Counted from the stretch's first letter, positions 1 to 59,818 are shown. The stretch is 64,000 bases of DNA from an uncultured bacterium (GCA_964422745.1 CAYRCK010000010.1:11136-75135), one strand, 5' to 3'. Translations and numbers: made by a program. The notes: generated from the sequence alone by a model not told the origin.

Positions 1-324
1 GAGGTTGAACGGGAAATAGACCGTCTCGCCGCCGAAGGCCCCGCGCAACATGGAGGGTGAATCCGTGGTCCCGTCGGGCTCGAGACCCGGTCCGTAGACG
101 GGAAGCACATCAAGCGTTATCTCGTTGGATGCCGCCGTGAAAGTCGAGTTGTCCGCCTCGTACGTTGCGGTCGATATGCTGGAGATGGAAGAACCGGCCG
201 GGGGGATATCTCCATATGCGGCCGCGGGGAATGACAGCATGCGCATGAAAATACAGACGAAGAGGAGGTGGCCTCTCCTGTGGGGCCGCAGCCCGAATAG
301 CCTCTTTTGTTCGCTTCTCCTCAC
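1..324 (-). CDS. 5' part of a secreted DUF11-cluster surface protein, paralog of 559..3261 (runs off the window edge)
   Basis: Hand translation from GTG at 324: VRRSEQKRLFGLRPHRRGHLLFVCIFMRMLSFPAAAYGDIPPAGSSISSISTATYEADNSTFTAASNEITLDVLPVYGPGLEPDG...GETVYFPFNL. It aligns with the N-terminus of the 900-aa protein (TPAGTTIRNQASATF...SNEVTTIVLPVYGVSIIPD...GQTVYYSYDL). Not in the ORF track. Confidence 0.85.
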   Translation of the reverse strand, partial: MRRSEQKRLFGLRPHRRGHLLFVCIFMRMLSFPAAAYGDIPPAGSSISSISTATYEADNSTFTAASNEITLDVLPVYGPGLEPDGTTDSPSMLRGAFGGETVYFPFNL

Positions 325-442
325 GGCGCCGCCTCGCCGGCTCGATCGATCACAGCCTGTACAGTAGTGTATTCATAACATATTTCATATCAAGCGATTA
401 ACTCGTCGAGTCCTGTCACTGAACGTCCCAACCCCTAAATAC

Positions 443-486
443 TGATTTAGAGGCGGACCACCGACATGATGATCGCCTCTAAATCA
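443..486. repeat. Perfect 13-bp inverted repeat (TGATTTAGAGGCG-N18-CGCCTCTAAATCA)
   Basis: Arms at 443-455 and 474-486, read directly. Confidence 0.85.
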
Positions 487-504
487 CTATGAAAAAATGA
501 CATT

Positions 505-534
505 CGGTGGGGCGGTTCATATCCCGCCCCACCG
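505..534 (-). terminator. Intrinsic terminator-like hairpin after the 900-aa gene
   Basis: CGGTGGGGCGG/CCGCCCCACCG 11-bp stem, followed shortly on the minus strand by TTTTTT. Confidence 0.7.
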
Positions 535-558
535 CGTAACCATACGGATCCTCCCGCC

Positions 559-3261
559 CTACTCGGCGACGATCCGTGCTATAAAGGTTATTCCATCGGC
601 AGTGCCGTCACCTCCGGCTATCCTGCCGCTGAGCGTCCAACGTATGTTCGTCACGTTCGCATCGAAGTTCACGGGCGCTCCACCGCCTCCGCTGACGGGC
701 GCATAGGTCCAGGTCGCCCCTCCGTCATCGGAGAAATCGATGGTTATCCCTGTTATCCCCGTTGCGAGTGTCCCGTTCGCAGCGGAACCTACGCGGTACT
801 GGGTCCAAGCCGGCATGGCGTCGTATATCACGATCGTCGAGAGCGTATCCGTGCCGACATTCGAATAATCCGTCCTGTAGGTGAGCTCCGTGCCGGGAAG
901 CTGATCGCCCGAAGGGGTGACCGACTTGACGAGCACCATGTTGCCGGCGACAACGGTCGTGACATCTATCGCGCTGTCGTTAGCGCCCGTCGCGTTACCG
1001 GTAGCGGTGATTGTACCCGTTTCGATCGTTCCAACCGGGGTCGCCGGCGGGATCTCCACCCTCACGATGATATCCTCCGAAGCGCCCACTACGAGCGTCA
1101 CCGACACTATCGGATTGCTCGATAGATCGTAGAATGAGTACAGCCATCCGTTCGAGCTAACAACGCTGAGCATGAAAGTATCGTCGATATTGCCGGTGTT
1201 CGTGACGGTGTGCTGGTACAGAACCGTACCGCCTGCGGTACCGGTCCCGCTCCTGTCAGGCACAATCGTCACGGCACCCGTTGTGTTCACCGTCACCGTG
1301 TTCGCTATCTCGTCGAACACCGCCGGGTTGTTCGCCGATGTCGCCCTTGGTGTAACAGCGTAAACGCCCGGGACCTCTCCCGCCGGGACCGCTACGCGCG
1401 CTATCACGTGCACCTCTCCCCCGCCTGCCACGGGCCCGATATTGGCTATCGGGGTGAGCTCCGGCACGTCGAGCAGGCCGTTACCGTTGGCATCTTCGTA
1501 GAAGGTAACAACCCATCCAGCCGGGAATGTGCAGGAGAGAGAGAAGTTATCGACGGACCCGCTCGTGTTGATGACATCCAGCGGGAAGTCCACATCGAGA
1601 CCGGGATCGGTGTTTATGTTGGCCGGATTGTTATCGGTGCCCGCCACTCCGTCGTAGTTACCAATGTCGACGGAAGATGGATTCACCTGTGTTATCTCGT
1701 CCGTCGTGAGGTTGCTCACGGTCGGATCATTGGCCGATACGGCTTCGATCACGGCGTTGTAAGGTCCGCCGCCCGCCTCGCTGCCCGGAATAGTGATCCT
1801 GACGATGAAGTTCCCGGTGTCTCCGGAGTTGACCGTTCCGACGTCCGGAATGCCGTCGCCGCCCGAATCGGAAAGAGGTGTTACGCCGTCGCTGCGGAAG
1901 AACTGCACACTCCATGCGGCCGGGATCGTCGATGCGGCGTTCAGCGTGATGTTGATCTCGTCGGCGGCGTTGCCGTCATTTCTTACCGTATTGATGAAAT
2001 CCACGCTTGAATTTGCGTAAGCCAGGGCTATGGCCTGAACATCGTCATCGTAGTTAGGCGGTGTTCCCGCGCCGGGATTGCCGTCGGGACCGACAAGAAG
2101 ATCCGCCGTGATATTCACGTTGATCTGCGTGTTGTTCGTCGTGACGATCGTGGGATCAGGCGTGGCAACGTTGTTGTCTATGTACGCGACCGCGCCGTTG
2201 TTGCTGATGATCCCGGCGGGCATGCCGGCCGGAACCGTAAGATCATATGTAAAGCTGTAGTTCTGGGCGACAACGAGATCGCCGTTTGTGATGTAGGCCA
2301 CAGCTATGTCACCGGCGGCCGCAGACGTCGACCACGCCCATGTCTCCGGAGAGCCCGCGGTCGAGCTTCCCGTAGGCAGGTACAGGACCGTACCGCCGGC
2401 GGGAGCCCCGGCGGGAACACCCGAAATGGCCAGAGGATCGCCGGTCGAAGGATCCGTGGGAAGCACGTCGTACATAAGGACCCCGGTGAGCGTCAGCGGG
2501 ACGATCGTGACACCATGCGCGTCGTCGTTTCCGACGTTGGCGCCGCTTATCGTGTAGGTCACATCGTTGCCCGGATCTATATTCGCAGGGATCCCCGACA
2601 TCGAGGCCGTTATGGTGGCATCGCTGACCGCCGTGGTCAGGTGGTAGTTACGCGTGTCGATCTGTGCCGCGTCGCCGTTCGAGGTGGCCTGGACACCGAC
2701 GTACGCAACCTCACCGGCCGTCGCCCCCGTAGGAACCTGATAGGAGACGAGCAGGTTAACCGTCGTTCCGGCGCTGATAGGACCGAGCGGACCCGGCACA
2801 CCGCCGGATGATACAGCAGGTTCCCCTCCGTCGAGCACGCCGTTCCCGTTGAGATCGTGATAGACCGTGATGTCGCCTATGCCGATCGTCATGTTCGTGC
2901 TAGCGGCGTCGAGCAGCGGAACGATAGAGTATGTGTCGCCGTCGTTTCCGGTGTTGGTAAGATCGTAGCTGTAATAAACCGTTTGCCCGGGTATCGCATT
3001 CTGACTCATCGCCGGAACCACTGGCGGTGTCTCTCCCGAATCGTCCGGGATTATTGATACCCCGTATACGGGCAGCACGATAGTGGTGACCTCGTTCGAG
3101 GTCGTTGAATAGGTATTGCCGATAAGGTCCTCGAACGTGGCCGAGGCCTGGTTGCGTATCGTCGTTCCCGCGGGTGTCTGGGCTTGAACAGCCTCCGCAA
3201 CGAACAGCGCCGCAACAATCAGAACCGGCATTACCAGCCCTCTGTACCTTCGCAGCGTCAT
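559..3261 (-). CDS. Secreted 900-aa Ig-like repeat / DUF11 (conserved repeat domain) surface protein
   Basis: Sec signal (…AEAVQA/QT). Repeated 'Y/F.(h)TV.N.GN..D' beta modules. C-terminal DUF11-type unit LVKSV..PGTELTYRTDYSNVG..IYDAMP. DxDxDG Ca-binding-like motifs (DLNGNGVLD, DANGNGLLD). Very poor in K/R. Confidence 0.8.
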   Translation of the reverse strand: MTLRRYRGLVMPVLIVAALFVAEAVQAQTPAGTTIRNQASATFEDLIGNTYSTTSNEVTTIVLPVYGVSIIPDDSGETPPVVPAMSQNAIPGQTVYYSYDLTNTGNDGDTYSIVPLLDAASTNMTIGIGDITVYHDLNGNGVLDGGEPAVSSGGVPGPLGPISAGTTVNLLVSYQVPTGATAGEVAYVGVQATSNGDAAQIDTRNYHLTTAVSDATITASMSGIPANIDPGNDVTYTISGANVGNDDAHGVTIVPLTLTGVLMYDVLPTDPSTGDPLAISGVPAGAPAGGTVLYLPTGSSTAGSPETWAWSTSAAAGDIAVAYITNGDLVVAQNYSFTYDLTVPAGMPAGIISNNGAVAYIDNNVATPDPTIVTTNNTQINVNITADLLVGPDGNPGAGTPPNYDDDVQAIALAYANSSVDFINTVRNDGNAADEINITLNAASTIPAAWSVQFFRSDGVTPLSDSGGDGIPDVGTVNSGDTGNFIVRITIPGSEAGGGPYNAVIEAVSANDPTVSNLTTDEITQVNPSSVDIGNYDGVAGTDNNPANINTDPGLDVDFPLDVINTSGSVDNFSLSCTFPAGWVVTFYEDANGNGLLDVPELTPIANIGPVAGGGEVHVIARVAVPAGEVPGVYAVTPRATSANNPAVFDEIANTVTVNTTGAVTIVPDRSGTGTAGGTVLYQHTVTNTGNIDDTFMLSVVSSNGWLYSFYDLSSNPIVSVTLVVGASEDIIVRVEIPPATPVGTIETGTITATGNATGANDSAIDVTTVVAGNMVLVKSVTPSGDQLPGTELTYRTDYSNVGTDTLSTIVIYDAMPAWTQYRVGSAANGTLATGITGITIDFSDDGGATWTYAPVSGGGGAPVNFDANVTNIRWTLSGRIAGGDGTADGITFIARIVAE

Positions 3262-3363
3262 AAATGACCACCGTCCTTCTCTATCTCTCTACCGAGAGAT
3301 TCAATGTTTATCGCTTGAATCCCGGAACAGGAACCCAAACCTTTACTCCGGGAGCCCTAACGT

Positions 3364-3858
3364 CTAGCGTACCTGCACGCGATAAGAGACCACCAGCTCC
3401 TGCCCCACGTCCAGGACAGTGTCAACACGCCACCTGACATGAGTGATCATATCCGGCGTCGCCTCCTTGACTTCCTCCTCGCCATCCTCGTTCACGACGA
3501 CGTATGTGACAGGCGCTTCCATGTAGCTCTCCCCGCCGTCGATGCTGAAGACCGGATGCATCCCCTTTGCTGCGGTAGCGGTCTCATCAAGGTAAACCGT
3601 ACCTTCGGGTATAGGCCCCGTTAGGTTGATACCCGAGGCCGCGGCATTGCCGGAGTTGCTGTACACCAGGCGGTATTCGAGCACGTCACTCGGATACACC
3701 TTCTCCGCGGACACCGCGATTTCGCGGTTGTTCTCGTCCAACACTATCTTTAGCGCTTCCATCTGACCCTCGAGGCTCGGGCTCTGCCCAAAAGCTGGGG
3801 CGGCGGCCAGAACCGCGGTGAGAACAAGAGCAACCAGCGAGAGGCTCCTTCTCATCAA
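3364..3858 (-). CDS. Small secreted single-DUF11-domain protein
   Basis: Signal peptide (…AAPAFG/Q); PSDVLEYRLVYSNSG..GPIPEGTVY..FSIDGG..THVRW; AGGAGG RBS upstream. Confidence 0.8.
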   Translation of the reverse strand: MMRRSLSLVALVLTAVLAAAPAFGQSPSLEGQMEALKIVLDENNREIAVSAEKVYPSDVLEYRLVYSNSGNAAASGINLTGPIPEGTVYLDETATAAKGMHPVFSIDGGESYMEAPVTYVVVNEDGEEEVKEATPDMITHVRWRVDTVLDVGQELVVSYRVQVR

Positions 3859-4032: not shown

Positions 4033-4303
4033 TTCCCGGCCTGAGGCGGCCGTGTAGCGCATGGGGCTTTAGTCCCCAATCAATTTCATATCAATTAGTT
4101 ACAATTGCTGCGGCCGGAAGGGATAATGGGTAATTAACGGAAACGAGAGGGAATCAGAAGGAACAATCCGACACGAATGAACCTCTGCTCGATGGGACTT
4201 TGGTCTTTCTCAATGCAATCAATTCGCAAAATGCAAGGGGCCCCGGCGGCGGGAGCAGCCACCGGTCGATAAGCAGAAATGAGGCGTTCGCCTCCATATA
4301 TAA

Positions 4304-4328
4304 TAACAGCCCCCTGTGAGGGCTGTTA
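4304..4328. terminator. Intrinsic terminator hairpin
   Basis: TAACAGCCC-N7-GGGCTGTTA with A/T-rich flanks, downstream of the small lipoprotein gene. Confidence 0.65.
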
Positions 4329-4386
4329 AAAAAGATGGAAGCCGGTTTCAGGGCGGACATTGCCCCGGCACATCGTCGTCGAGCCG

Positions 4387-6135: not shown

Positions 6136-9100
6136 TCAGCGCATGAGTATCATCTTCCTGGTCCCGGTGAAATCCCCGGCCCTCATCCTGTAGAAGTAGA
6201 TGCCGCTCGCAACATCCGAGCCGCTGTTGTTCTCACCCCTCCACGTCACCCTGTGAGGGCCCGCCTCCCTTACACCGTTTACCAGAGTCTTCACGAGCCT
6301 TCCCGTTACGTCGTACACCTTGAGCGTAACGTGCCCTCTCTCCTTCATCCCGAATCGGATCGTCGTCGCCGGGTTGAAGGGATTGGGGTAGTTCTGCGCG
6401 AGCCCGTACCTGTATACCGGAGGCGTCTCCTCATCGCCCGTGACCACGCTGTTCGTATCGCCGTCCATCCATCCGAGCACATCCTTCGCCACGATGTTTC
6501 GCATGATGGGTGAAGAGAGCTCGGCATCCTTCATCAGCATCAGGCTGAATCCGAACCACATCGTCCTTATCTCATACCCCCCGTCATTTATGCCCGTCGA
6601 GTATATGCCGGCGTAGTACGGAAGGGCCTCGTGGTCGGGGTAGGCGAGCGCATAATCACCACTGCCCGTTTTCTCCAGGCAGTCCAGATCCTCTACATAC
6701 GGACAGCCGCTTAAAACATAGAACGAATCCCCCCATGTCGTGTGCCATAGCGGGTTGTATACATCCTCGCATGCCTCAACGAGCGGGTTCATGACTCCGC
6801 CGGTGTACCGCCCGCCTGTCATATCGAAGTAGCTGCCGTGGACATAGCAAACTCCACACATAGTAGACGTCAGCTGCGTGGGACAGGCAGCCAAAGAGGC
6901 GTCGAGATCTCGTGCTATGTTGTCCCCGCAGACCCAAAGGCCCACATCATGCGGTGAGAAATCCATCCAAGCCACCAACGCCAGACAGTCGTTACCCTTG
7001 TCGCTGTGCGTGGTACCATCGCATATTGTGCAGACATCGAGGTCGCCGCTATCCCATATGATCGTGGAGTAGGCCGTTGTCAAATGATAGCACTTCGCCC
7101 TGCCACCGAGCCCGTTAGATACACAGGAGGACGCACCGTTCACGTCGTAGCGGTCCGGCTGAACGCTCAGAACGGCCTCCAGGGTCGGCGTCCAGTAGTC
7201 CTCGACAACGCCCCCGATGGAACCGCGGCCGCTGAAATCGTCCACGAAGAGCACATCGCTTGTGAAGGTAGGAAGGCATGTGAACTCGAACCACTCGTCG
7301 GGCCCCTGCGATAGCAAGTATCCCGCACCCGGACCTGATCCTCCCCTCGGCAGAGTCGTGACGTTGCCGTCCCTGTCCTGGGCCGAGAAGTAGTACTCGA
7401 TGATGTGCCCCCTCGTGAGCAGCGAGTCGTTTAGATCAACCATGTACTTTCCGGGTACCACACCCGAGGTACCTGCTCTGGCCGTATCGCACTGGATTAT
7501 GGCCTCACACGCCACCTCGTCGCATGCGACTATGTGGCCGTAGTCGCCCTCTAGATCCCAGCAGTTTATCGGTGTGGGGGCGGGCTCTGCCCCTATGTAG
7601 GTGCACTTTACGTGCATGTACACCAACGGGCCGAATGCGTCCTCGGCAATGCCCCTGCCCATGGGGGATTCACACGAGACGACTATCGAATCACCCGGAT
7701 CGATTATAGGATCACTCGAAGGCCGTATATCTCGCGCCATATCGGCGCGGACATAGCTGTCGAGTCCGAATTCCTCTTCGGGGAAGTTGTCCTGGAAGAG
7801 ATCTAAATCGCGATAGGTCCACAGCGGGCCCGTAGCCTCGTACCTTACTATCTCAACGTTGTCGAACCACGGGGACGGGGTGTGGGCCGCACAGTAACCG
7901 TACACACCGTACCACGTAGGACACATATCGATCACACCGAGTGCGACCTGGATCGAGTCAATGCCCCCCCCGCCCCAGTAGGGGCTTATATCCTGCTCGA
8001 AGAAGAGGTACTCCTTGAAATCGCCGTAATACACAAAATTGTTGTCTCTCCAGTGACACGGACAGCCGTCGTCTATGTCCCTGACCTTCCAATAGTAAAA
8101 CACGAGGTTTATCACCGGCAGATCACGGTACACGCTGAACCTGAGAAAGCTCCCGCCCAGGTCCTCAAAGGCGGAGGGCGCTATCATGAGATCCTGGATC
8201 TCGTCTCTGCCCGAAGAGTACATAGTCATGTCGATCGGGGGAGAGACAACCATCTCCTCCTGCCCGAAGCAGCCAATATCGGCGCCGTCCTTGCAGTACG
8301 GCGTTTCGTAGAGGCCCTCGTACTCGGTGCTGGCGTGGGGAGATCCCGCGAAGAACACGATCTGACGGGAGAGGTTGTCGTTGCATGGATCAGTCTCCTG
8401 GTACAGATTTTCCCAGATATCCGAGTACATCCCGTACGGCTCGGGGACGTCCGCGCGCCAGTATAACGTGTTGAGATCGCCGTCGGCCTCGAGAGCGCCA
8501 ACTGAAGCGCTCTCGAAGTCCTCGTAGTCGATCGTCCCCGTCTCATCCGAGATCCATATGCTGTCGACGATGCATGCGCCGTCAGTATTATACAACCCAT
8601 CCTCGTCGTTCCACGTGGAGGGTGATGTGAACCTGACCCTGAACTTCGTCCTGTACTGGGGCAGCGCCAGGACGTGGTTACCAATGATATCGTCCGTGCC
8701 GTCATATACGGCTATATTACGCCAGTCCAGGCCACCGGCATCGTACTCAACGTGAACCTCATCCCAATCCTCTTCCGTGTCTATCCGCATCTTGTACACT
8801 AGGTTCAACAATCCGTTGAAATAAAATGGATCGCTGACCAGCCATTGGTCCCAATAGCTCCCGTAGCCCGGAGGCGTAGACCAACCGCATGTAATTTCAT
8901 CCTCCGGCCTGGCACCGCACCAAGCCGACTGGGTACCCTCCAGGGGATAGAGGCGTCCGAAATCACCCCCGCCGAGGCCCGCGAAGTCATCTACGTGGAA
9001 GAAGGTATCTAATTGAGCGGTATTATCGACACGGGTCCACCCCTGCCAGTCGTTATACTCGAAATCGAAGCGCACGATGACGTACGTATCTACAGAAGCC

Positions 9101-10281
9101 GACCTGTAAAGGCCGCCGGGCCCACGCTCCAGAATCGCGCTGAACTCGCCCCTCGACCAATCCTTCCTTATTACAGGCCTATCCCTGCCCTTCCTCCCAC
9201 CGGCATCTGATGACGATGTCATCAGGAGGGTGAGGCATACGAGAATCAGCGAAATCAACAGCGCACCGCCCGCTTGCTTCGAGCGCCTCCTAATGAACAC
9301 CGCCGCAACAAGGAGCATGGCGATTGCGAGCAGCAGTATCACCGGCGTGCTCAATAGCGGCACGAAGCTGGGCTCTATGACCTCTATGATCTGAACGCAG
9401 GTGTCGTAGACGGATCCCACGCCGTCGTCCCACGCTATTATCACAAGCGTATCGCGATCGTTGTGAGAGGCGCCGCTCGCGTCCATTACCCCGTACACCG
9501 TCTCGCACTCCGCCCCCTCCAATCCATAGACCGTGCCCGACTGGGGAAATCCTCCCCCAACCTGGCCCATACTAGTGATAACGAACGAGTAGTCCCTCGC
9601 TGGTGAAACCGCAGTGGGATTGCAGATCTCGAAGGGTATATACGCGGCCGGCTGCCCCTCGTCCACGTACGTCAGCGAATCCTGGTGGATCTCGAGCTCG
9701 GGTGGAGGCTCGACCACGTGCAGGATCAAGGTGTCACTCGAATAGTACGGGTTGCCCCCGTACCAGTTGGGATCCTCGCAGTCACCGCAGTCGGGCCTGC
9801 AGGTTACTTCTGCATCGCAGTACGTCACGACGACCACGAGCGTGTCATATGAGCCGACCTCCGCGCTCAGCAGTGCGGTCACATTGATATCCTGCCACCA
9901 GAGATACCCCGGATCGATCAGGTAACAGTCATCCAGATACGGATCGCCCGTAACGGTATAATCGCCGGCGTCCGAATCCGCCATGTAGGCGTGTACACAG
10001 AACGTGTCTGTGTCCGGACACGGCCAAGAGACGAATCCGAAGTTACACGGTCCGACCGTCCAGCTGAGGGCCTGTCCCACAGGGATATCGTGATAATCCT
10101 CACCGAAATCCACGTACAGCCCGGGATCCCCCTCCTTGCTGCAGCCTGCCTGCGCGAGTACCGGAACCGAGAACAACGTAAGGACCAGAACTGAAAAAAC
10201 AAGAAAGGTAAGCGGAAGTACGATCGAGCACCGTTTCATGACAACCCCCGGGGATCGAGAATGAGCAGCCGACCTATTCAT
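6136..10281 (-). CDS. 1381-aa exported multidomain protein with internal sorting/TM segments and a C-terminal FlgD-Ig/T9SS-type tail
   Basis: Signal peptide after MKRC (alternative start 10239). Internal VPLLSTPVILLLAIAMLLVAAVFIRRR plus a second hydrophobic stretch. C-terminus QNYPNPFNPATTI…SGIYFYRM…KMILMR. Confidence 0.85.
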   Translation of the reverse strand: MNRSAAHSRSPGVVMKRCSIVLPLTFLVFSVLVLTLFSVPVLAQAGCSKEGDPGLYVDFGEDYHDIPVGQALSWTVGPCNFGFVSWPCPDTDTFCVHAYMADSDAGDYTVTGDPYLDDCYLIDPGYLWWQDINVTALLSAEVGSYDTLVVVVTYCDAEVTCRPDCGDCEDPNWYGGNPYYSSDTLILHVVEPPPELEIHQDSLTYVDEGQPAAYIPFEICNPTAVSPARDYSFVITSMGQVGGGFPQSGTVYGLEGAECETVYGVMDASGASHNDRDTLVIIAWDDGVGSVYDTCVQIIEVIEPSFVPLLSTPVILLLAIAMLLVAAVFIRRRSKQAGGALLISLILVCLTLLMTSSSDAGGRKGRDRPVIRKDWSRGEFSAILERGPGGLYRSASVDTYVIVRFDFEYNDWQGWTRVDNTAQLDTFFHVDDFAGLGGGDFGRLYPLEGTQSAWCGARPEDEITCGWSTPPGYGSYWDQWLVSDPFYFNGLLNLVYKMRIDTEEDWDEVHVEYDAGGLDWRNIAVYDGTDDIIGNHVLALPQYRTKFRVRFTSPSTWNDEDGLYNTDGACIVDSIWISDETGTIDYEDFESASVGALEADGDLNTLYWRADVPEPYGMYSDIWENLYQETDPCNDNLSRQIVFFAGSPHASTEYEGLYETPYCKDGADIGCFGQEEMVVSPPIDMTMYSSGRDEIQDLMIAPSAFEDLGGSFLRFSVYRDLPVINLVFYYWKVRDIDDGCPCHWRDNNFVYYGDFKEYLFFEQDISPYWGGGGIDSIQVALGVIDMCPTWYGVYGYCAAHTPSPWFDNVEIVRYEATGPLWTYRDLDLFQDNFPEEEFGLDSYVRADMARDIRPSSDPIIDPGDSIVVSCESPMGRGIAEDAFGPLVYMHVKCTYIGAEPAPTPINCWDLEGDYGHIVACDEVACEAIIQCDTARAGTSGVVPGKYMVDLNDSLLTRGHIIEYYFSAQDRDGNVTTLPRGGSGPGAGYLLSQGPDEWFEFTCLPTFTSDVLFVDDFSGRGSIGGVVEDYWTPTLEAVLSVQPDRYDVNGASSCVSNGLGGRAKCYHLTTAYSTIIWDSGDLDVCTICDGTTHSDKGNDCLALVAWMDFSPHDVGLWVCGDNIARDLDASLAACPTQLTSTMCGVCYVHGSYFDMTGGRYTGGVMNPLVEACEDVYNPLWHTTWGDSFYVLSGCPYVEDLDCLEKTGSGDYALAYPDHEALPYYAGIYSTGINDGGYEIRTMWFGFSLMLMKDAELSSPIMRNIVAKDVLGWMDGDTNSVVTGDEETPPVYRYGLAQNYPNPFNPATTIRFGMKERGHVTLKVYDVTGRLVKTLVNGVREAGPHRVTWRGENNSGSDVASGIYFYRMRAGDFTGTRKMILMR

Positions 10282-34996: not shown

Positions 34997-36976
34997 GTGC
35001 TTATGCGCAGGTATAGTATCAGTATCTCATTACTGCTCATAATCCCGCAGCTGGCATTCGCCGGCATCCCGATACTCTACCCAAACTGGCTCATTGACGG
35101 AGCCCCTGTGACTACAGAAACCGGTACGCAGTGGTTCCCGAGGCTCGTGGCCGATGGCGAGGGCGGAGCCATCATAGCCTGGATGGACAAACGCTCGAAA
35201 GACTACTACGACATCTACGCCCAGAGGATCGACACCGATGGATACATCCTCTGGACAACGGACGGCATCCCAGTCTGCACCGCCGGCGGGGACCAGCGCG
35301 AGCACTGGATCGCCACGGACGGTTCGGGCGGGGCGATCGTTACATGGGCCGATTACCGCAGCGGATCCGACTCGGATATCTACGCCCAGAGGATCGATCC
35401 GAACGGCAACACGATGTGGACCGGCGACGGCGTAGCCGTGTGCTCCGCCGAAGGGGACCAGACCTCACCGCAGATCGTCGAGGACGGCTCGGGCGCAACG
35501 GTGATAACGTGGGTCGACGCGAGAAGCGGCGCGGGTGAAGAGGACATATACGCAATGAAGATCGACCCGGATGGAAATGCGCTCTGGACCTGGCAGGGGG
35601 TCGCCGTCACGGCGGCTTCGCACGATCAATATGCACCGCAGATCACTTCAGACGGCGCCGGAGGCGCCATCATTGCATGGGAGGACAAAAGAGCGGGGGG
35701 AAATCCCGACATCTACGCCCAGAGGATCGACAGCGGGGGAAATGCGCTTTGGACGGCTGACGGCGTGATGGTGAGCCTCTCGGACAGCGCGGACTGCAAT
35801 CTGCGCATGGCGTACGATGAAGACGGCGGAGCTATCTTAACGTGGGATAACAACGGCGGGGGATCCTTCGATATCTTCGCCCAGCGGCTGGATGCCTCTG
35901 GGAATCCCCTTTGGGCTCCCGGAGGTCTGGGCGTTTGCACGGCGCCCTCTCCCCAGATCAAACCGGAGATCGTATCGGATATGGCATCCGGAGCCATCAT
36001 AGCGTGGACCGATCTGCGCAACGTCCTGGGATCGGATATCTACGCCCAGAGAGTCGACGCCGGGGGCGGCATAATGTGGTCCGCCGACGGCGTACTGGTC
36101 TGCGGAGCGGAGAGCAATCAGAGTTATCATAAAATCGCAACGGACGGGCTGGGCGGAGCGGTCATCACCTGGCGTGACGAGCGCGTCGATAACAACAACG
36201 CCGACATATACGCCCAGCGGGTCGATCACGACGGTGGAATTCAATGGACCGAAGGCGGTGTCCGCATTTGCGCCGCAGACGGTCTCCAGACAAAGCCGCA
36301 GCTCGTATATGAGGGCTACTGCGGAGTCATAATCGCCTGGGCCGATTTTCGCAACCTGTACGACTCGGACATATACGCCATGAAGGTATGCGAGGGATTG
36401 CCCCCTGTGGCTACCCTCCTCCAGAGCTCGTCGTGTTCGATCGATGGAGCCGATGTGGTCATAGAATGGACGCTGACCGAAACCGGACCCGACGTTGATT
36501 TCCACGTCTACCGGGCGCCTGCTTATTCAGCCACGTTCGTGGAAATATTCGATCCGCAAATAATAAGGAGCAACCTCAATTTCTCGTTCAGGGACAGGGG
36601 AACGGAACCGGGGCGCTCATACCGGTATGCGGTAGAGATGGAGGACGAATCGGGAAGAAGCACACTGTTCATGACGGATGACGTAACCGTTCCCGCTGCG
36701 TTTCTATCATTGGAGCAGAACCACCCTAATCCATTCAATCCGGTTACGACTATAGGCTATTACGTTCCGCGTGAATGCCGGATCGAGCTCGGCGTTTACG
36801 ATGTTTCCGGCACGCTCGTCAAGCGTGTCACAAGCGGAAGTGTCCCGGCGGGTCATCATAAAGCGACGTGGAGCGGCATCGACGAATCGGGGAGGCCGGC
36901 CGCTTCCGGTGTATACTTCTACCGTCTCAGAGCAGGCAAGGAAGTGATAACCCGCAAGATGACGCTTCTCAGGTGA
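34997..36976 (+). CDS. Secreted 8-repeat beta-propeller-like protein with FlgD-Ig/T9SS-type tail
   Basis: Eight ~55-aa repeats W..DG..V…Q..P.I..DG.GGAII.W.D.R…DIYAQRID; C-terminus QNHPNPFNPVTTI…SGVYFYRL…KMTLLR. Confidence 0.85.
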   Translation: MLMRRYSISISLLLIIPQLAFAGIPILYPNWLIDGAPVTTETGTQWFPRLVADGEGGAIIAWMDKRSKDYYDIYAQRIDTDGYILWTTDGIPVCTAGGDQREHWIATDGSGGAIVTWADYRSGSDSDIYAQRIDPNGNTMWTGDGVAVCSAEGDQTSPQIVEDGSGATVITWVDARSGAGEEDIYAMKIDPDGNALWTWQGVAVTAASHDQYAPQITSDGAGGAIIAWEDKRAGGNPDIYAQRIDSGGNALWTADGVMVSLSDSADCNLRMAYDEDGGAILTWDNNGGGSFDIFAQRLDASGNPLWAPGGLGVCTAPSPQIKPEIVSDMASGAIIAWTDLRNVLGSDIYAQRVDAGGGIMWSADGVLVCGAESNQSYHKIATDGLGGAVITWRDERVDNNNADIYAQRVDHDGGIQWTEGGVRICAADGLQTKPQLVYEGYCGVIIAWADFRNLYDSDIYAMKVCEGLPPVATLLQSSSCSIDGADVVIEWTLTETGPDVDFHVYRAPAYSATFVEIFDPQIIRSNLNFSFRDRGTEPGRSYRYAVEMEDESGRSTLFMTDDVTVPAAFLSLEQNHPNPFNPVTTIGYYVPRECRIELGVYDVSGTLVKRVTSGSVPAGHHKATWSGIDESGRPAASGVYFYRLRAGKEVITRKMTLLR

Positions 36977-51270: not shown

Positions 51271-53853
51271 ATGTTACGCAAGGCCGCATGTCCTGTAGCG
51301 CTCATATGCCTGGCCGCCCTGCTGACCGTGGCGTCGGATGCCTGCGCCGGCAATGCCCACAATCATAGATTCCAGGATGTTCTAGACTGCCGATTCCGCA
51401 TCGATTCAGCGCTCGACCTGGGCTACTCAAGACTCGCCGGGGCCGTATCGACGGCCGCGGCGGGGGACACGAACGCATTAAAAACCAGCGTCGCCGAATA
51501 CTTCATCACACACAAACGGCGGTGCAAGATAAAGCAATGGCCGCCCCATGAAAACTCAAAACTCAGGGCGGACGCTTTCCTCGAGGATGAATACATACTA
51601 GGCATACACCCAGGATACCGCCTGAAGAGATCCCTGACATGGAGGGAAAATCCGGCGAAGTCCGATAACTGGATGTTCATGCTGAATGCATTCGACATAC
51701 TGAGAAGCGTCACCGATACCTACAGGGCAAGCGGTGACACGAGATACTCCGAAAAGGCCAAGAACCTGATACTCGACTTTATCGAGGATAATTACGACTT
51801 CAGGCGCCTCCCCGGCAGGTATTCATGGTACGACCACGCGGTGGCCTACAGGGCCATATATCTGGTTGATTTCTATATACATTGCATTTATATGCATGAC
51901 TGTGACGCCGGTTTCATGCTCGAGCTCCTCGAGCTCGTATGGCGTCACGCCGTCTATCTTTCAAAGAGCAGATACTATTCGAGCAAGACAAACCACGGCA
52001 TGTTCAGCAACATCGCCCTACTTAGGATCTCGCTCGCCTTTCCGGAGTTTCGCGACTCTGAAAGTTGGAGGGATACGGCCGTATCCCGCATGGAGCGCCA
52101 GGTGCAGGACAACTTCACAGAATGCGGCGTGCACAAGGAGTACTCCCCCGGTTATCATGTTCTAACCACGAAACTCATCGAACGGTTCGTGGAGGACTGC
52201 CGGGTGGACAGGCGTATCGAACTCTCGAGTGATCTCAAGGACAGAATGAAATCGATAAAAACGAACATACCGTACTTCTTCCTTCCCGACGGGATGTACT
52301 CCCTGATCGGGGACACACAGCTTTTACCTGCGGAAGAGGCGCTTAGACCGCTTGCGGCGCATAATCCGTACATTCGATACGTGCAGACGAGTGGGAAAAG
52401 GGGGCGGCCCCCTCGAGGCAGATCGAAGGCCATGCGCGACGCCCAGATCTTCGTCATGAGAAGCGGGTGGGGAGAGGAGCGGCCGTACGAAGAGGAGTCC
52501 TGCCTGATAGCCGATTTAACCGCATACGGAAACGCCCACCAGCACAAGGATTTCATGTCTTTCGAGCTGTACGCGAAAGGCTATAGATGGATCACCGATC
52601 TCGGGCCCTTCTCATACAACTTCAGTGATCCCAGAAGAATATACATAAAATCGAGCATCGCCCATAATGTCGTCGTGCCTTACAGGGAAGAAACAAAACA
52701 TCTTGTCAGGAAGTCGAGGTTGGAATACGAAAGCCCCTCTCCTACCACCAGGCCCCGGCGGCTGGACCCCCTAGAAGTCAAGCTGAACCAGATCGCGATG
52801 ATTGGAAACACAGAGGATAGGATTTCACTGCTCGAGGGATTGCTCTCGGATTATGTCGGTGATTTCGAGGACAGGATACTCATCATGCTGGCATTCAGCT
52901 ACCTGGAAACCGACACCGATTCCAAGGCGGCTGAAGACTGCCTGATGAGGGTGATAGACAAGGGCTCTCAAAACGAGTACTACGATGTCGCCTCGGAGTT
53001 GCTTTCCCTGAAAGACGAAATACCCGACCTCAACGATCTCGAAAAGAAGGGAAGCGATGACGACCACCACAGGGAACCGGTCCAGGCCGGCACCCGTGGC
53101 GTTGAAATAAAGAGCAGGGGGAAAAACGCCACCCTGCCCGGTGATCCAAGCTCGCGCGAAAATCTTTCGAATAAATCCGGGCTTCATGCAATAGAGGCAG
53201 ATCAAAGAAACAGGCCCGTAGTGGACCACTGGCTTTCGGAGAGTAATTACGATTACCTCGAAGGGCATTTCAATTACACCTGGTTTTTCAAGCATTCACG
53301 ATCGATTCTCTTCGTCAGGCCTCATTATTTTCTGGTGGTTGACAGGCTCGACACCGAAGATCCGTGCACCTTCAGGCAGCTTTTTCACATGCCGCCCGAC
53401 GTGGAGGTGCTAGAGCGCAGTGGCGGGTACACTCTCTCTGTCGGGGATTCGCTGAAATGCCTCTTTCTGCGAATAGCCGGGCCCGGAGAACTACGTGGAA
53501 GGATCGTGAGGGGACATAGAGACCCGGAACTCCAGGGCTGGTACTCGGGAAAGTTCGGCAACTTCGAGGCTGCCCCGGTAGTCGAATACTCGTTCGAGGC
53601 CGAAGAGGGCAGCTACTTTCTGGCCCATCTCTTCGTTCCGGCGGGGAAGGAGGACATATCGGGATTCGAGGTGGAAATCCGTAACGGAGAGAGTTGGGAT
53701 CCCGGAGAGCTCGAGCCTCTTCACCTCGTGATAACCGAACCGCACCACCGCACAAGTATCAAGCTCATGCCGTCTTCGATCTTCGTTCCCTCTCCGAAAG
53801 GCCCGATGGCGGACGAAGATCCGCACATCAAGGTAGCCCGCAGGCGGAAATGA
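51271..53853 (+). CDS. Heparinase II/III-like polysaccharide lyase with internal insertion
   Basis: Signal peptide; NHG, G.HKEYSPGYH, FVMRSGW, HQHKD..SFEL…DLG..Y, AHN, H.RSILF…FLVVD, QLFH. Confidence 0.82.
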   Translation: MLRKAACPVALICLAALLTVASDACAGNAHNHRFQDVLDCRFRIDSALDLGYSRLAGAVSTAAAGDTNALKTSVAEYFITHKRRCKIKQWPPHENSKLRADAFLEDEYILGIHPGYRLKRSLTWRENPAKSDNWMFMLNAFDILRSVTDTYRASGDTRYSEKAKNLILDFIEDNYDFRRLPGRYSWYDHAVAYRAIYLVDFYIHCIYMHDCDAGFMLELLELVWRHAVYLSKSRYYSSKTNHGMFSNIALLRISLAFPEFRDSESWRDTAVSRMERQVQDNFTECGVHKEYSPGYHVLTTKLIERFVEDCRVDRRIELSSDLKDRMKSIKTNIPYFFLPDGMYSLIGDTQLLPAEEALRPLAAHNPYIRYVQTSGKRGRPPRGRSKAMRDAQIFVMRSGWGEERPYEEESCLIADLTAYGNAHQHKDFMSFELYAKGYRWITDLGPFSYNFSDPRRIYIKSSIAHNVVVPYREETKHLVRKSRLEYESPSPTTRPRRLDPLEVKLNQIAMIGNTEDRISLLEGLLSDYVGDFEDRILIMLAFSYLETDTDSKAAEDCLMRVIDKGSQNEYYDVASELLSLKDEIPDLNDLEKKGSDDDHHREPVQAGTRGVEIKSRGKNATLPGDPSSRENLSNKSGLHAIEADQRNRPVVDHWLSESNYDYLEGHFNYTWFFKHSRSILFVRPHYFLVVDRLDTEDPCTFRQLFHMPPDVEVLERSGGYTLSVGDSLKCLFLRIAGPGELRGRIVRGHRDPELQGWYSGKFGNFEAAPVVEYSFEAEEGSYFLAHLFVPAGKEDISGFEVEIRNGESWDPGELEPLHLVITEPHHRTSIKLMPSSIFVPSPKGPMADEDPHIKVARRRK

Positions 53854-57580: not shown

Positions 57581-59818
57581 ATGCGTTGTGCCAGATATGT
57601 ACTCGGTGCCCTTGCGGCACTGCTTGTATCGTTGCTGCCGTACGGACCGGCCGATGCAGCCAATGACATTCCATCGGCCCACCAGCAGGGACAGAAGTTT
57701 ATTAACCGCGTCTTGGTCACAGACGGCACCAACGTCCATAACGTAGGGCGGCTCCATGTCCATGTGGGTAATTGGGGAGTCTTCGGCTCTTATCCCGGCA
57801 CCTCGTATCCCTTCTCCAGCGTACCCTCGGCTCAATGGCCGGCCAGCAGCGGGGTGGAATACCTGTATGCCTGCGGATTGTGGGTGGGAGCGGAAAAAAA
57901 CGGAATCCAATCCGTTTCGACTTCCATGTACGAGTGGGAACTGCTTCCGACGATGAGCGTCACAGACATCATATACAACTCGTACGAGGGGGCCCTCGGT
58001 GGCACCAGGCTTCCGGATCCAGGGTCGGACGATGACGGCGACGGATGCACGGATGAGGATTGGCTGGATGGACGCGACAACGACGGCGACGGATGCATAG
58101 ACGAGGACTACGCGGCCATATCCGCTCAGATGTTCAGCTGCTGGTATACCGATGACCAACCCGATGCTACAGCCTACTATCCAGAGCACAAACCCCTGAA
58201 CATCACGGTCAGGCAGGAAAGCTATCAATGGGAAGAGAAGTCATTTTACGATTTCGTCGGCATCAGGTACATAGTAACGAATACGGGTAATGATTTACTG
58301 GAGAACGTCTATCTCGGATTCTTCGTCGATCCCGACGTCGGCCCTCGGAGCAGACCGTATTACTGGCAGGACGATGCTGTGGCAAGCTGGCGCGGCCTCA
58401 TGTGCACGGAGAACGGGCCGGTCTCACTGGATATGGGATACGCGTACGACGTGGACGCAGACGGGGGGCAGACGCCGGGGTACGCCGGATTCATGCTTCT
58501 CGGTCATACAACGGATCCCCTCGGTATCAAGGCCCCCGAAAGGGCGGGGATTGCCTCCCTGCAGTACTTCGAGGGAGAACTGCCTTACGAGTACGGTGGA
58601 GACCCTACATCCGACTACCAGCGGTACGAGCTCATGTCGTCGGGCCGTTTCGACAGGGATTCAGGCTCCCCGGGAGATCACAGGATGCTGATCAGCACAG
58701 GGCCTTTCCCCAGGCTCGCCCCCGGCGAGACGATAGAAATACACCTAGCGATAGTTCTCGGGATGGGGCGGCAGGGCATGCTCGAAAACGCCGCCGCCGC
58801 GCAGGATCTCTTCAACGGCGTTTGGTGCGATATAGATGGAGATCCTCTGACGGGAATCGACCGGAGGGAAACTCCGGTGCACGGCCCCGCCCAGGTAGTG
58901 ATCGACGCCTGCCGCCCCGAATTGAGCGATCCGGTAACTGTCCCCCGGGGATCCGTCGTCTGGATCAACAGCGACTGCGGGCAGGAGGATGACTATAGGG
59001 ACAGCTGCGGCTACGGAGAGCAGGACAGCCTGTTGTTCCGTACCGGTGTCGCGGGCAGAGAGCACCGGATCAACTGGCTCTCCGAGGGTCAGTCCATTTC
59101 CCTGGACATCCTCGACATCCTCCCCTGTGTTTGCCCCAACCCGTTCCCGATGAGCCTGTTCAACACGAATGACAGGCTGGATCCATCCGCGTGGGACATT
59201 CTCCCCGTGGCCGTGCTGGGCAATCCGTCCTTGGACGTTCGAGAGATAGACATATCCACCGTCCTGCTCGAAGGTGTCGCTCCCACCGTTCATCACAGCA
59301 TCAGGGACAAGGCGGGGCTCACCGAGGGCAGGCAGGACTGCGAGTGCACTACAGCCGGGCCCGACGGGCTGGATGACCTGATGCTGAAATTTCCGACTGT
59401 GGACCTCGTGGAGGTCTTGAGCATGGACGGCATCCCCACGCGCGGGGAGGAGAGGATGCTGACGCTGACGGGGCTGCTGCTGGACGGAACCGCTTTCCGT
59501 GCTTCCGACTGCCTGAGATTCGTCGGCGAGATGGATCTCCCCGAGCATACGCATCTGGAGCCACGTATCACCGCTGCATATCCCAACCCGTTCAACCCTG
59601 TCACCCGCCTCTCGTACTACATACCCGATGGCCGGCACGTGCGCCTATCGGTGTACGACGTGTCGGGAAGGCTGATCGAGGTGCTGGTCGACGGGTACAA
59701 GACCGCCGGGGATCATACAGTGAGCTGGAACGCGGAAGGATTGGGGAGCGGAGTTTACTTCCAGCTTCTGGAGTCAGGCGATTATTCGGTATCCGGAAAG
59801 TTGATTTTGCTGAGATAG
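57581..59818 (+). CDS. Secreted multidomain protein with T9SS/FlgD-type tail
   Basis: Signal peptide; HNVG..NWG.FG..WP..SG.EYL..GLWVG; DDDGDG/DNDGDG Ca-type motifs; AYPNPFNP…SGVYF…KLILLR. Confidence 0.8.
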   Translation: MRCARYVLGALAALLVSLLPYGPADAANDIPSAHQQGQKFINRVLVTDGTNVHNVGRLHVHVGNWGVFGSYPGTSYPFSSVPSAQWPASSGVEYLYACGLWVGAEKNGIQSVSTSMYEWELLPTMSVTDIIYNSYEGALGGTRLPDPGSDDDGDGCTDEDWLDGRDNDGDGCIDEDYAAISAQMFSCWYTDDQPDATAYYPEHKPLNITVRQESYQWEEKSFYDFVGIRYIVTNTGNDLLENVYLGFFVDPDVGPRSRPYYWQDDAVASWRGLMCTENGPVSLDMGYAYDVDADGGQTPGYAGFMLLGHTTDPLGIKAPERAGIASLQYFEGELPYEYGGDPTSDYQRYELMSSGRFDRDSGSPGDHRMLISTGPFPRLAPGETIEIHLAIVLGMGRQGMLENAAAAQDLFNGVWCDIDGDPLTGIDRRETPVHGPAQVVIDACRPELSDPVTVPRGSVVWINSDCGQEDDYRDSCGYGEQDSLLFRTGVAGREHRINWLSEGQSISLDILDILPCVCPNPFPMSLFNTNDRLDPSAWDILPVAVLGNPSLDVREIDISTVLLEGVAPTVHHSIRDKAGLTEGRQDCECTTAGPDGLDDLMLKFPTVDLVEVLSMDGIPTRGEERMLTLTGLLLDGTAFRASDCLRFVGEMDLPEHTHLEPRITAAYPNPFNPVTRLSYYIPDGRHVRLSVYDVSGRLIEVLVDGYKTAGDHTVSWNAEGLGSGVYFQLLESGDYSVSGKLILLR

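Follow-up and report, generated by a model that had tools for sequence, protein, structure and literature searches.

The question raised by positions 1-3858 of a 64,000-nucleotide stretch of DNA from an uncultured bacterium (GCA_964422745.1 CAYRCK010000010.1:11136-75135, referred to here as the window) is what its three co-oriented minus-strand open reading frames (ORFs), all encoding secreted proteins of the DUF11/CLIPPER type, might build together. A first-pass annotation had taken these proteins, here termed g1, g2 and g3, to be the major, minor and helper subunits of a polymer assembled by an unrecognised route. The analysis described below extended the locus to a cassette of four genes, g1-g2-g3-g4. 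Its sequences suggest, with the chances about evenly balanced, that the cassette builds a surface fibre by split-domain complementation, with a large barrel in g3 as the anchor. The earlier interpretation was partly supported, being right in outline and wrong in the roles that it assigned.

Organisation of the cassette

The ORFs of the three secreted proteins were confirmed, and g1, g2 and g3 each contained a Sec-type signal peptide with an AxA-like cleavage site. In the following, an acceptor is a CLIPPER (DUF11) domain that ends after strand 7 and a donor is a separate hairpin corresponding to strands 8 and 9. The features of the cassette in the window are:

3364..3858 (-): g1; translation from ATG at 3855 gives 163 amino acids, from TTG at 3858 gives 164 amino acids
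559..3261 (-): g2; 900 amino acids with approximately eight immunoglobulin (Ig)-like domains in tandem
3064..3180 (-): donor hairpin of g2, residues 28-66; the predicted signal peptide ends in AVQA and the hairpin reads QTPAGTTIRNQASATFEDLIGNTYSTTSNEVTTIVLPVY; the codon of N37 is at 3151-3153
562..942 (-): acceptor domain of g2, residues 774-900, up to the stop codon; K779 is encoded at 925-927 and D814 at 820-822
1..324 (-): start of g3, with GTG at 324; 108 amino acids lie in the window and the gene runs off its left edge
211-324 (-): signal peptide of g3
94-210 (-): donor hairpin of g3, DIPPAGSSISSISTATYEAD...SNEITLDVLPVY, with Ser at the position of Asn37 of g2
505..534 (-): GC-rich, perfect stem-loop of 11 pairs (10 of them G-C), directly past the stop codon of g2

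Sequence to the left of the window was taken from 79-kb metagenome contigs, from sediment and seawater, that encode the same 900-amino-acid protein. On these contigs g3 was a protein of 1934 amino acids and was followed by g4, of 1324 amino acids, giving a cassette of four genes. It had been suggested that an outer-membrane component may lie left of the window, and the flanking contig does contain one, an OmpA domain together with a predicted barrel, located within the third gene itself and immediately next to the window. The sequencing runs that hold the locus were sediment and seawater DNA metagenomes only, and no RNA runs carrying it were found.

Hairpins differing in sequence from the stem-loop after g2, and lying at the same position in the g2-g3 spacer, were present in most of the related loci examined (L004, L007, L012, L016, L022, L060 and L062). 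A role in attenuation or in mRNA stabilisation, by which g1 and g2 would be set above g3 and g4, is probable for the stem-loop. As with fimbrial operons, it suggests that g1 and g2 are made in greater amounts than the products of the two genes behind it.

Acceptor and donor parts of the terminal domains

The solved CLIPPER domain (PDB id. 9IFR) consists of nine strands and contains an isopeptide bond between Lys715, close to the N-terminus of the domain, and Asn806, in the penultimate strand, with Asp748 nearby (Costa et al., 10.1101/2025.04.25.650565). In canonical tandem CLIPPER repeats every domain closes with a hairpin of the form '..G..I.N.A.....SN.V..V'. Alignment with hhalign showed that g1 and the C-terminal domain of g2 cover the canonical CLIPPER domain to strand 7, up to the last residue of each protein. 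Mature g1 is a single CLIPPER/DUF11-like domain ending after this strand, and is an acceptor with no donor hairpin. The same termination just after the pre-hairpin strand was observed for g1, g2, g4 and all other non-barrel cassette proteins, from several phyla, whose termini were read. In the AlphaFold2 monomer model of g2, which had a predicted TM-score (pTM) of 0.42, residues 775-897 formed seven strands, and the Foldseek matches of g2 were generic Ig/MG arrays only.

The donor was identified as an orphan copy of CLIPPER strands 8-9 (TPAGTxIxNxAxAxY...SNxV) located directly after the signal-peptidase site in g2, g3 and their homologues. This motif also directly follows the signal peptide in Psychrobacter proteins of 701 and 1778 amino acids and in Nostoc proteins of 853 and 511 amino acids, and the N-terminal sequence of a stalk protein from Fidelibacterota aligns in register with the hairpins that close the protein's own tandem repeats. 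A profile of the seven tandem repeats of this Fidelibacterota protein was used as the reference for joining acceptor and donor in silico. The donor profile matched columns 96-126 of the reference (E=1e-3), and the acceptor alone matched columns 5-58 with an hhalign score of 61.6. When the acceptor was joined to the donor the score rose to 81.5 (E=4e-13) and the alignment ran from column 5 to column 126 through the junction, whereas control chimeras carrying a reversed or shuffled donor gave a score of 60.8. Joining the g2 hairpin to g1 likewise raised the Pfam DUF11 score from 22.9 to 28.9 bits and extended the match from model positions 8-62 to 8-99; a PDB sequence search with g1 plus the hairpin gave nothing useful. 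The complementarity of acceptors and donors paired in silico is clear at the level of sequence profiles, and suggests terminal domains that are split between proteins.

The relationships between the three proteins that had been read from the window were reproduced. Homology between the 164-amino-acid g1 and the final domain of g2 was seen with BLASTP (28% identity over 110 amino acids, g2 residues 779-877, E=6e-5), and hhalign mapped both onto one canonical CLIPPER profile. The N-terminus of g2 was shared by g3, the likeness extending over approximately 460 residues with 29% identity (E=2e-35), a paralogy that reaches well beyond the N-terminal motif. The assignment of these proteins to DUF11 held in part: it was clear for g3 and g4 (58.5 and 60.7 bits, Pfam PF01345 cut-off 24.6) and passed for g1 with TIGR01451 (27.6, cut-off 24), while g1 at 22.9 bits and g2 at 15.1 bits were below the Pfam cut-off. 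Alignment of g2 to the canonical repeats with hhalign gave E=5e-10. The close relatives of g1 formed 70 clusters of approximately 160 amino acids with 51-68% identity, and the length of g2 was fixed at approximately 894-903 amino acids in most of the orthologues listed.

Lysine, acid and asparagine residues

Among 50 orthologues of g2 (59-77% identity) the hairpin was the densest invariant stretch (T29 P30 A31 G32 T33 I35 N37 ... S55 N56), and N37, K779 and D814 were all invariant. K779 is the sole lysine among the 900 residues of g2; the orthologues contain one to five lysines, always including the position of K779. The same Lys and Asp were found in g4, and the Lys is conserved in g1 (K36 counted from the ATG). 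The donor Asn was present in 54 of the 59 non-barrel donors and the SN of the second hairpin strand in 56 of them, and 20 of 53 barrel-protein donors contained the Asn. The Lys/Asn/acid triad to which the first-pass annotation had pointed does not form a closed intramolecular set in g1 or in the last domain of g2. The last domain of g2 contains the Lys and Asp without the Asn strand, which is absent from g1 also, and the Asn strands sit instead at the N-termini of g2 and g3.

The barrel protein g3 and the tip candidate g4

After its signal peptide, g3 consists of a g2-like stalk, a DUF11 domain, a domain resembling SdrD_B/CarboxypepD_reg, a linker rich in Pro, Gly and Glu, an OmpA domain (PF00691, residues 800-898, E=3e-10, bit score 40.7 with a cut-off of 27.2), two Ig domains and the predicted barrel, in this order. 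The third gene had been put forward as a helper subunit; its architecture is instead that of an anchor, with OmpA and a predicted barrel of approximately 35 strands fused to a stalk. The OmpA domain was kept in the Krumholzibacteriota and Latescibacterota versions of the barrel protein and had no counterpart in the versions from Psychrobacter, Nostoc, Sulfurovum and Nitrospiraceae. The barrel region spans residues ~1140-1924, with approximately 35 predicted strands, and the C-terminus of the protein (...FHVRLRWKF) resembles the β-signal of outer-membrane proteins. The C-terminal 1034 amino acids of g3 gave no Pfam match, even at E<=10, and no NCBIfam or PDB sequence match.

The barrel was modelled using a homologue (P0077) that is 50% identical over 98% of the g3 region, with 85 homologues. 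The AlphaFold2 model, with a predicted local distance difference test (pLDDT) score of 82.7 and a pTM of 0.70, contained two Ig-like domains followed by approximately 35 long β-strands. A β-sandwich of approximately 125 residues was inserted after the first three strands of the barrel, and the most conserved motifs of the barrel family (YYPxYGD, DGTSGFYFL and DYDINYxDGSILFKEP) lie in this sandwich. When the barrel was compared with known structures using Foldseek, the matches were other very large barrels only (SlpA, LptD, SprA, FimD and MtrB) with TM-scores of approximately 0.2. A profile search with the barrel returned 3158 clusters (50% identity) at E<=1e-30 and 7694 at E<=1e-3. The predicted barrel represents a large, previously undescribed family of outer-membrane barrels; no description of either the cassette or the barrel was found in the literature searched.

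The 1324 amino acids of g4 include NPCBM_assoc, SdrD_B and DUF11 domains, and the N-terminus reads like a lectin-like or carbohydrate-binding-module jelly-roll, as judged by eye only. The domain composition of the barrel protein itself varies between lineages, an Invasin_D3-like Ig domain preceding the barrel in the cyanobacterial homologues. Stalk and barrel are on separate genes in Nostoc sp. MS1 (L009 8469-13801) and in a Fidelibacterota locus (L070 2773-12196), with the donor hairpin on the stalk. For the Nostoc barrel protein, the existing annotation as a TonB-dependent receptor looks wrong.

Conservation of gene order

The order g1, g2, g3, g4 was kept in other Krumholzibacteriota-type contigs, and the order g1, g2-like gene, barrel gene was found in Krumholzibacteriota, Latescibacterota, Nitrospiraceae, Desulfobulbaceae, Geobacteraceae, Fidelibacterota, Sulfurovum, Psychrobacter and Nostoc. 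Barrel homologues were present in Psychrobacter, Sulfurovum, Hyphomonadaceae, Nostoc and Sphaerotilus. The barrel genes of Psychrobacter pacificensis and Nostoc sp. MS1 were preceded by genes for a small g1-like protein and for Ig-repeat proteins that share the N-terminus of g2. A scan for related loci, using one genome per species, identified 80 further loci spanning Krumholzibacteriota, Latescibacterota, Nitrospiraceae, Desulfobulbaceae, Geobacteraceae/Geomonas, Deferrimicrobiaceae, Fidelibacterota, Sulfurovum and Campylobacteraceae.

Counts were made on a set of 60 loci, including the contig of the window, in which the 5' end of the barrel gene was complete and at least 3.5 kb of upstream sequence was present. 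A protein with an N-terminal donor motif was encoded upstream of the barrel gene in 54 of the 60 loci, covering at least eight lineages, in keeping with the earlier expectation that the genes would be syntenic elsewhere. A g1-like protein was detected in 46 of these loci using a strict test, and the donor motif was carried by the barrel protein itself in 47. Four Geomonas loci (L048, L051, L057 and L059) contained barrel homologues, but the profiles detected neither a g1-like protein nor the donor motif; either the cassette has diverged in these loci, or the barrel is put to another use there.

The genes downstream of the barrel were examined at L053 13709-19155, L050 14218-18349 and L054 13687-18898. 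In Desulfobulbaceae and Geobacteraceae the genes past the cassette encode a FecR-like/Ig protein, a histidine kinase of the Cache-HAMP type and a response regulator containing a GGDEF and sometimes an EAL domain, and the downstream genes of a Nitrospiraceae locus matched this cyclic diguanylate (c-di-GMP) set by size. FecR-like proteins, sensor kinases and GGDEF/EAL regulators are the usual neighbours of biofilm and adhesion genes. The barrel proteins of Nitrospiraceae, Desulfobulbaceae and Geobacteraceae also contained approximately 470-650 extra residues past the barrel. Contigs labelled Patescibacteria, Micrarchaeota and Bathyarchaeia (L014, L042 and P0079) carried a cassette 57-82% identical to the Krumholzibacteriota versions, and such labels on this diderm cassette are probably due to mis-binned or mislabelled metagenome-assembled genomes.

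Comparison with known systems

The cassette was compared with the chaperone-usher pili (Fim, Pap and the archaic CupE/Csu). In both, the subunits are secreted and Ig-like. As in these pili, the last domain of the cassette proteins would be incomplete, and an N-terminal extension would complete the neighbouring subunit. As a tip with an acceptor and no donor g4 would resemble FimH, and as a terminator or anchor with a donor and no acceptor g3 would resemble PapH or FimI. Further similarities are the large predicted outer-membrane barrel with an inserted β-sandwich and flanking Ig-like periplasmic domains, and the stem-loop behind the gene of a putatively abundant subunit. The systems differ in that the cassette barrel is predicted to have approximately 35 strands compared to 24 for the usher, the donor is a CLIPPER hairpin of two strands where the pili use one, the anchor subunit and the barrel share one polypeptide, and a covalent lock is possible. 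No PapD-like chaperone (PF00345, PF02753) was found on the cassette genes or their neighbours, and identity of the barrel with the usher (PF00577) was rejected, with no Pfam match at E<=10 and TM-scores of 0.17-0.24 to FimD or PapC. Membership of the classical chaperone-usher class was ruled out by the lack of the chaperone, the lack of a match to the usher family and the number of strands.

The fibrillar adhesins built from CLIPPER domains (DUF11, PF01345) share their domain family with the cassette and resemble it in having a Lys close to the beginning of the domain, an acid at approximately +33-35 and an Asn in the penultimate strand, and in forming beads-on-a-string stalks in Gram-negative surface proteins. 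The bond of these adhesins is intramolecular and is contained in the nine-strand domain of one giant polypeptide (10.1101/2025.04.25.650565), whereas the terminal domains of the cassette appear to be split between proteins, so that any isopeptide bond there would be intermolecular. In the TasA-family protein BsaA of Clostridium perfringens donor-strand exchange is reported to be followed by intermolecular isopeptide bonds between monomers ('exchange and lock', 10.1101/2024.11.04.621531), and in Sulfolobus threads isopeptide bonds occur alongside donor-strand complementation and reinforce the thread (PMC9715654). As proposed for the cassette, an N-terminal segment of BsaA and of the Sulfolobus threads enters the sheet of the next subunit; they differ from it in having unrelated folds and sequences, monoderm or archaeal hosts, no outer-membrane barrel and small homopolymers. 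Neither a TasA/camelysin-type fold nor a SipW-type signal peptidase gave a Pfam match in the cassette, and the likeness is confined to the mechanism proposed. SpyTag/SpyCatcher is an engineered split CnaB2 domain in which the bond forms spontaneously on docking. It is similar to the joint proposed for the cassette in that Lys and acid are on one partner and the other bonding residue is on a short strand, and dissimilar in being engineered, in its CnaB fold, in its Asp/Lys pair and in the use of a single strand.

The barrels that gave the top Foldseek matches, among them SprA of the type IX secretion system (T9SS; 36 strands), LptD, Deinococcus SlpA and MtrB, are single-chain proteins of comparable size to the cassette barrel but differ from it in domain context, with TM-scores of 0.15-0.22 and sequence identities of 7-10%.

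The first-pass annotation had noted that the 900-amino-acid protein has no transmembrane anchor, sortase motif or T9SS tail, and none was detected here: g2 contained no LPxTG, lipobox, hydrophobic run after the signal peptide or T9SS C-terminal domain. No LPxTG and no hydrophobic tail were found in g1, g2 or g4, in which the strings LPASG and LPFSG occur by chance and far from the C-termini, and no sortase Pfam domain was found on neighbouring genes. Sortase pili were rejected on the lack of LPxTG, of a C-terminal membrane anchor and of a neighbouring sortase gene. A T9SS sorting domain (Por_Secre_tail or FlgD_ig-type C-terminal domain) was found on none of g1-g4, and T9SS cargo was rejected on this ground. 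Type V secretion (autotransporters, intimin/invasin, two-partner) was rejected as well, there being no Pfam matches to its known barrel families or to POTRA or LysM modules, and approximately 35 predicted strands compared to 12 or 16. The cassette genes encode none of the known export routes, in agreement with the unrecognised route that had been proposed.

T9SS C-terminal domains (Por_Secre_tail or FlgD_ig) were present on three other secreted proteins of the window, at 6136-10281 (-), 34997-36976 (+) and 57581-59818 (+), indicating that the organism uses the T9SS, although not for g1-g4.

Proposed assembly and alternative explanations

From the sequence anatomy, the synteny and the fold predicted for the barrel, we infer the formation of a polymer by complementation in trans, with the covalent bond, subunit order and export route described here. 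The donor hairpin of one protein would insert into the acceptor of the next, as in the donor-strand complementation of chaperone-usher pili. This would give a polar chain that starts with the barrel and stalk of g3, with a distal donor, continues with g2 once or repeated, and ends in a tip that has an acceptor and no donor, which could be either g4 (large) or g1 (a small cap). The role of a repeating major subunit is not open to g1, which has an acceptor domain and no donor. The Lys and Asp of an acceptor (K779 and D814 in g2, and their equivalents in g4) and the Asn of a donor (N37 in g2) may form an autocatalytic intermolecular Lys-Asn isopeptide bond that locks the joint. With no acid in g1, and Ser for Asn in the donor of g3, the joints of g1 or of the g3 donor would be non-covalent, and g1 could therefore serve as a reversible cap or chaperone.

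The fibre would be anchored by g3, with the barrel in the outer membrane and the OmpA domain on the peptidoglycan, and the stalk and the other subunits would probably cross via the barrel lumen, as in the usher. No other outer-membrane component, and no other candidate conduit, is encoded in the cassette, and the β-sandwich inserted near the start of the barrel recalls the usher plug. The wider proposal of a distinct and widespread diderm pilus or adhesin pathway, in which hairpin insertion, self-sealing Lys-Asn isopeptide bonds, extrusion of a fibre that stays fused to its barrel of approximately 35 strands, and an acid-less g1 that reversibly caps or chaperones donor hairpins are all combined, is made tentatively and is more doubtful than the split-domain fibre itself.

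A number of observations weigh against a fibre of this kind. The gain on joining acceptor and donor was only +3.5 when a divergent internal domain of g3 was the reference, and in PDB profile searches 9IFR was matched by the acceptor profile with only E=0.32 and was lost with the acceptor-donor chimera. A regular expression served to collect the donor seeds, and the profiles scored the very loci from which they had been made, so the locus counts are partly circular. At the residue level, the g3 donor of the window clade has Ser instead of Asn, and the acid position of g1 is Gly (LTGPIP), being Gly, Gln or Leu in the g1 family. The cassette of the window also has three acceptors (g1, g2 and g4) and only two donors (g2 and g3). 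CLIPPER folds have been reported with seven to nine strands (10.1101/2025.04.25.650565), so a terminal domain of seven strands could be complete alone. The N-terminal hairpin of g2 had a pLDDT of 82-92 in the monomer model, and such confident placement means that it may pack in cis on the first or the C-terminal domain. The stalk could remain in the periplasm, since a periplasmic OmpA domain separates it from the barrel, and the fixed length of g2, approximately 900 amino acids, would also fit a periplasmic scaffold.

The hairpin could alternatively be a sorting or docking signal, by which several independent Ig-repeat adhesins are exported through the barrel. Its recognition, by β-augmentation, would fall to the barrel's periplasmic Ig domains or inserted sandwich, as cargo is recognised by the N-terminal domain of the usher or the POTRA domain of TpsB, and the seven-strand C-terminal domains would be complete. 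This explanation accounts for the location of the motif at the mature N-terminus, where it is far better conserved across phyla than the rest of the proteins, and is compatible with the barrel as sole outer-membrane component, with the range of strand numbers in CLIPPER folds and with a hairpin that is confidently folded in the g2 monomer. It is nevertheless considered unlikely, as it does not explain the presence of the same motif at the N-terminus of the barrel protein itself in 47 of 60 loci, the register and profile match of the motif with strands 8-9 of canonical repeats, the termination of all partners exactly before these strands, or a lone invariant Lys and Asp placed as isopeptide partners of the hairpin Asn. 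A hairpin that folds in cis, either into the C-terminal domain of its own g2 chain to form a ring or onto domain 1, would give monomers and no polymer. The g2-like proteins do carry donor and acceptor on one chain, and both elements had high pLDDT in the g2 monomer model. The pTM of that model was however only 0.42, which does not support a closed ring, and with a donor but no terminal acceptor in g3 and its homologues, and acceptors without donors in g1 and g4, at least these proteins must pair in trans; self-complementation is regarded as quite improbable.

The chlamydial protein OmcB contains DUF11 repeats and has been proposed to form a layer under the outer membrane. On this model g3 would be a tether between outer membrane and peptidoglycan, and g1, g2 and g4 would form an Ig layer beneath the outer membrane. 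The OmpA domain lies between stalk and barrel, for which the simplest topology keeps the stalk periplasmic, the fixed length of g2 suggests a ruler-like structural part and not a variable adhesin, and the nearest Foldseek matches of the barrel include SlpA-type tethers, although with TM-scores of only approximately 0.2. A periplasmic scaffold is rather improbable when set against the versions from Psychrobacter, Nostoc, Sulfurovum and Nitrospiraceae, which have no OmpA domain, a barrel of approximately 35 strands with an inserted sandwich that is oversized for a mere anchor, the adhesin-like modules of g4, and the c-di-GMP and biofilm-type regulators nearby in other phyla. DUF11 repeats are common and their consensus contains a G..I.N.A strand, so the genes might also be unrelated DUF11 adhesin genes that are neighbours by chance and share the usual repeat consensus. 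The conservation of gene order in several bacterial phyla brings this explanation near to refutation already, and with g1 51-68% identical across 70 clusters and an orphan hairpin at the signal-peptide cleavage site of g2-like and barrel proteins alike it is scarcely credible.

Other features of the window

Upstream of g1, at ~4150-4330 of the window (L001 8711-8875), there is an ORF of 54 amino acids, followed by a terminator-like hairpin at 4304-4328. Related contigs have a YHS-domain gene of 92-97 amino acids at this place, and truncation or miscalling of such a gene may lie behind the ORF. At 51271-53853 (+) the window encodes an 860-amino-acid polysaccharide lyase, heparinase II/III-like and with no relation to the cassette. 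The window contained no tRNA gene and no Rfam family.

Implications

If the proposed pathway is correct, it would constitute a route to surface fibres that is not chaperone-usher, type IV, type V, T9SS or sortase dependent, and that would be common to sediment Krumholzibacteriota and Latescibacterota, Psychrobacter, Sulfurovum, Geobacteraceae and cyanobacteria. It would give a named function to barrels that form over 3000 sequence clusters and have no Pfam model, and would explain the start and stop points of many proteins annotated as 'DUF11 domain-containing proteins'. The donors and acceptors of the family would also be a source of natural self-ligating protein pairs of the SpyTag/SpyCatcher kind.

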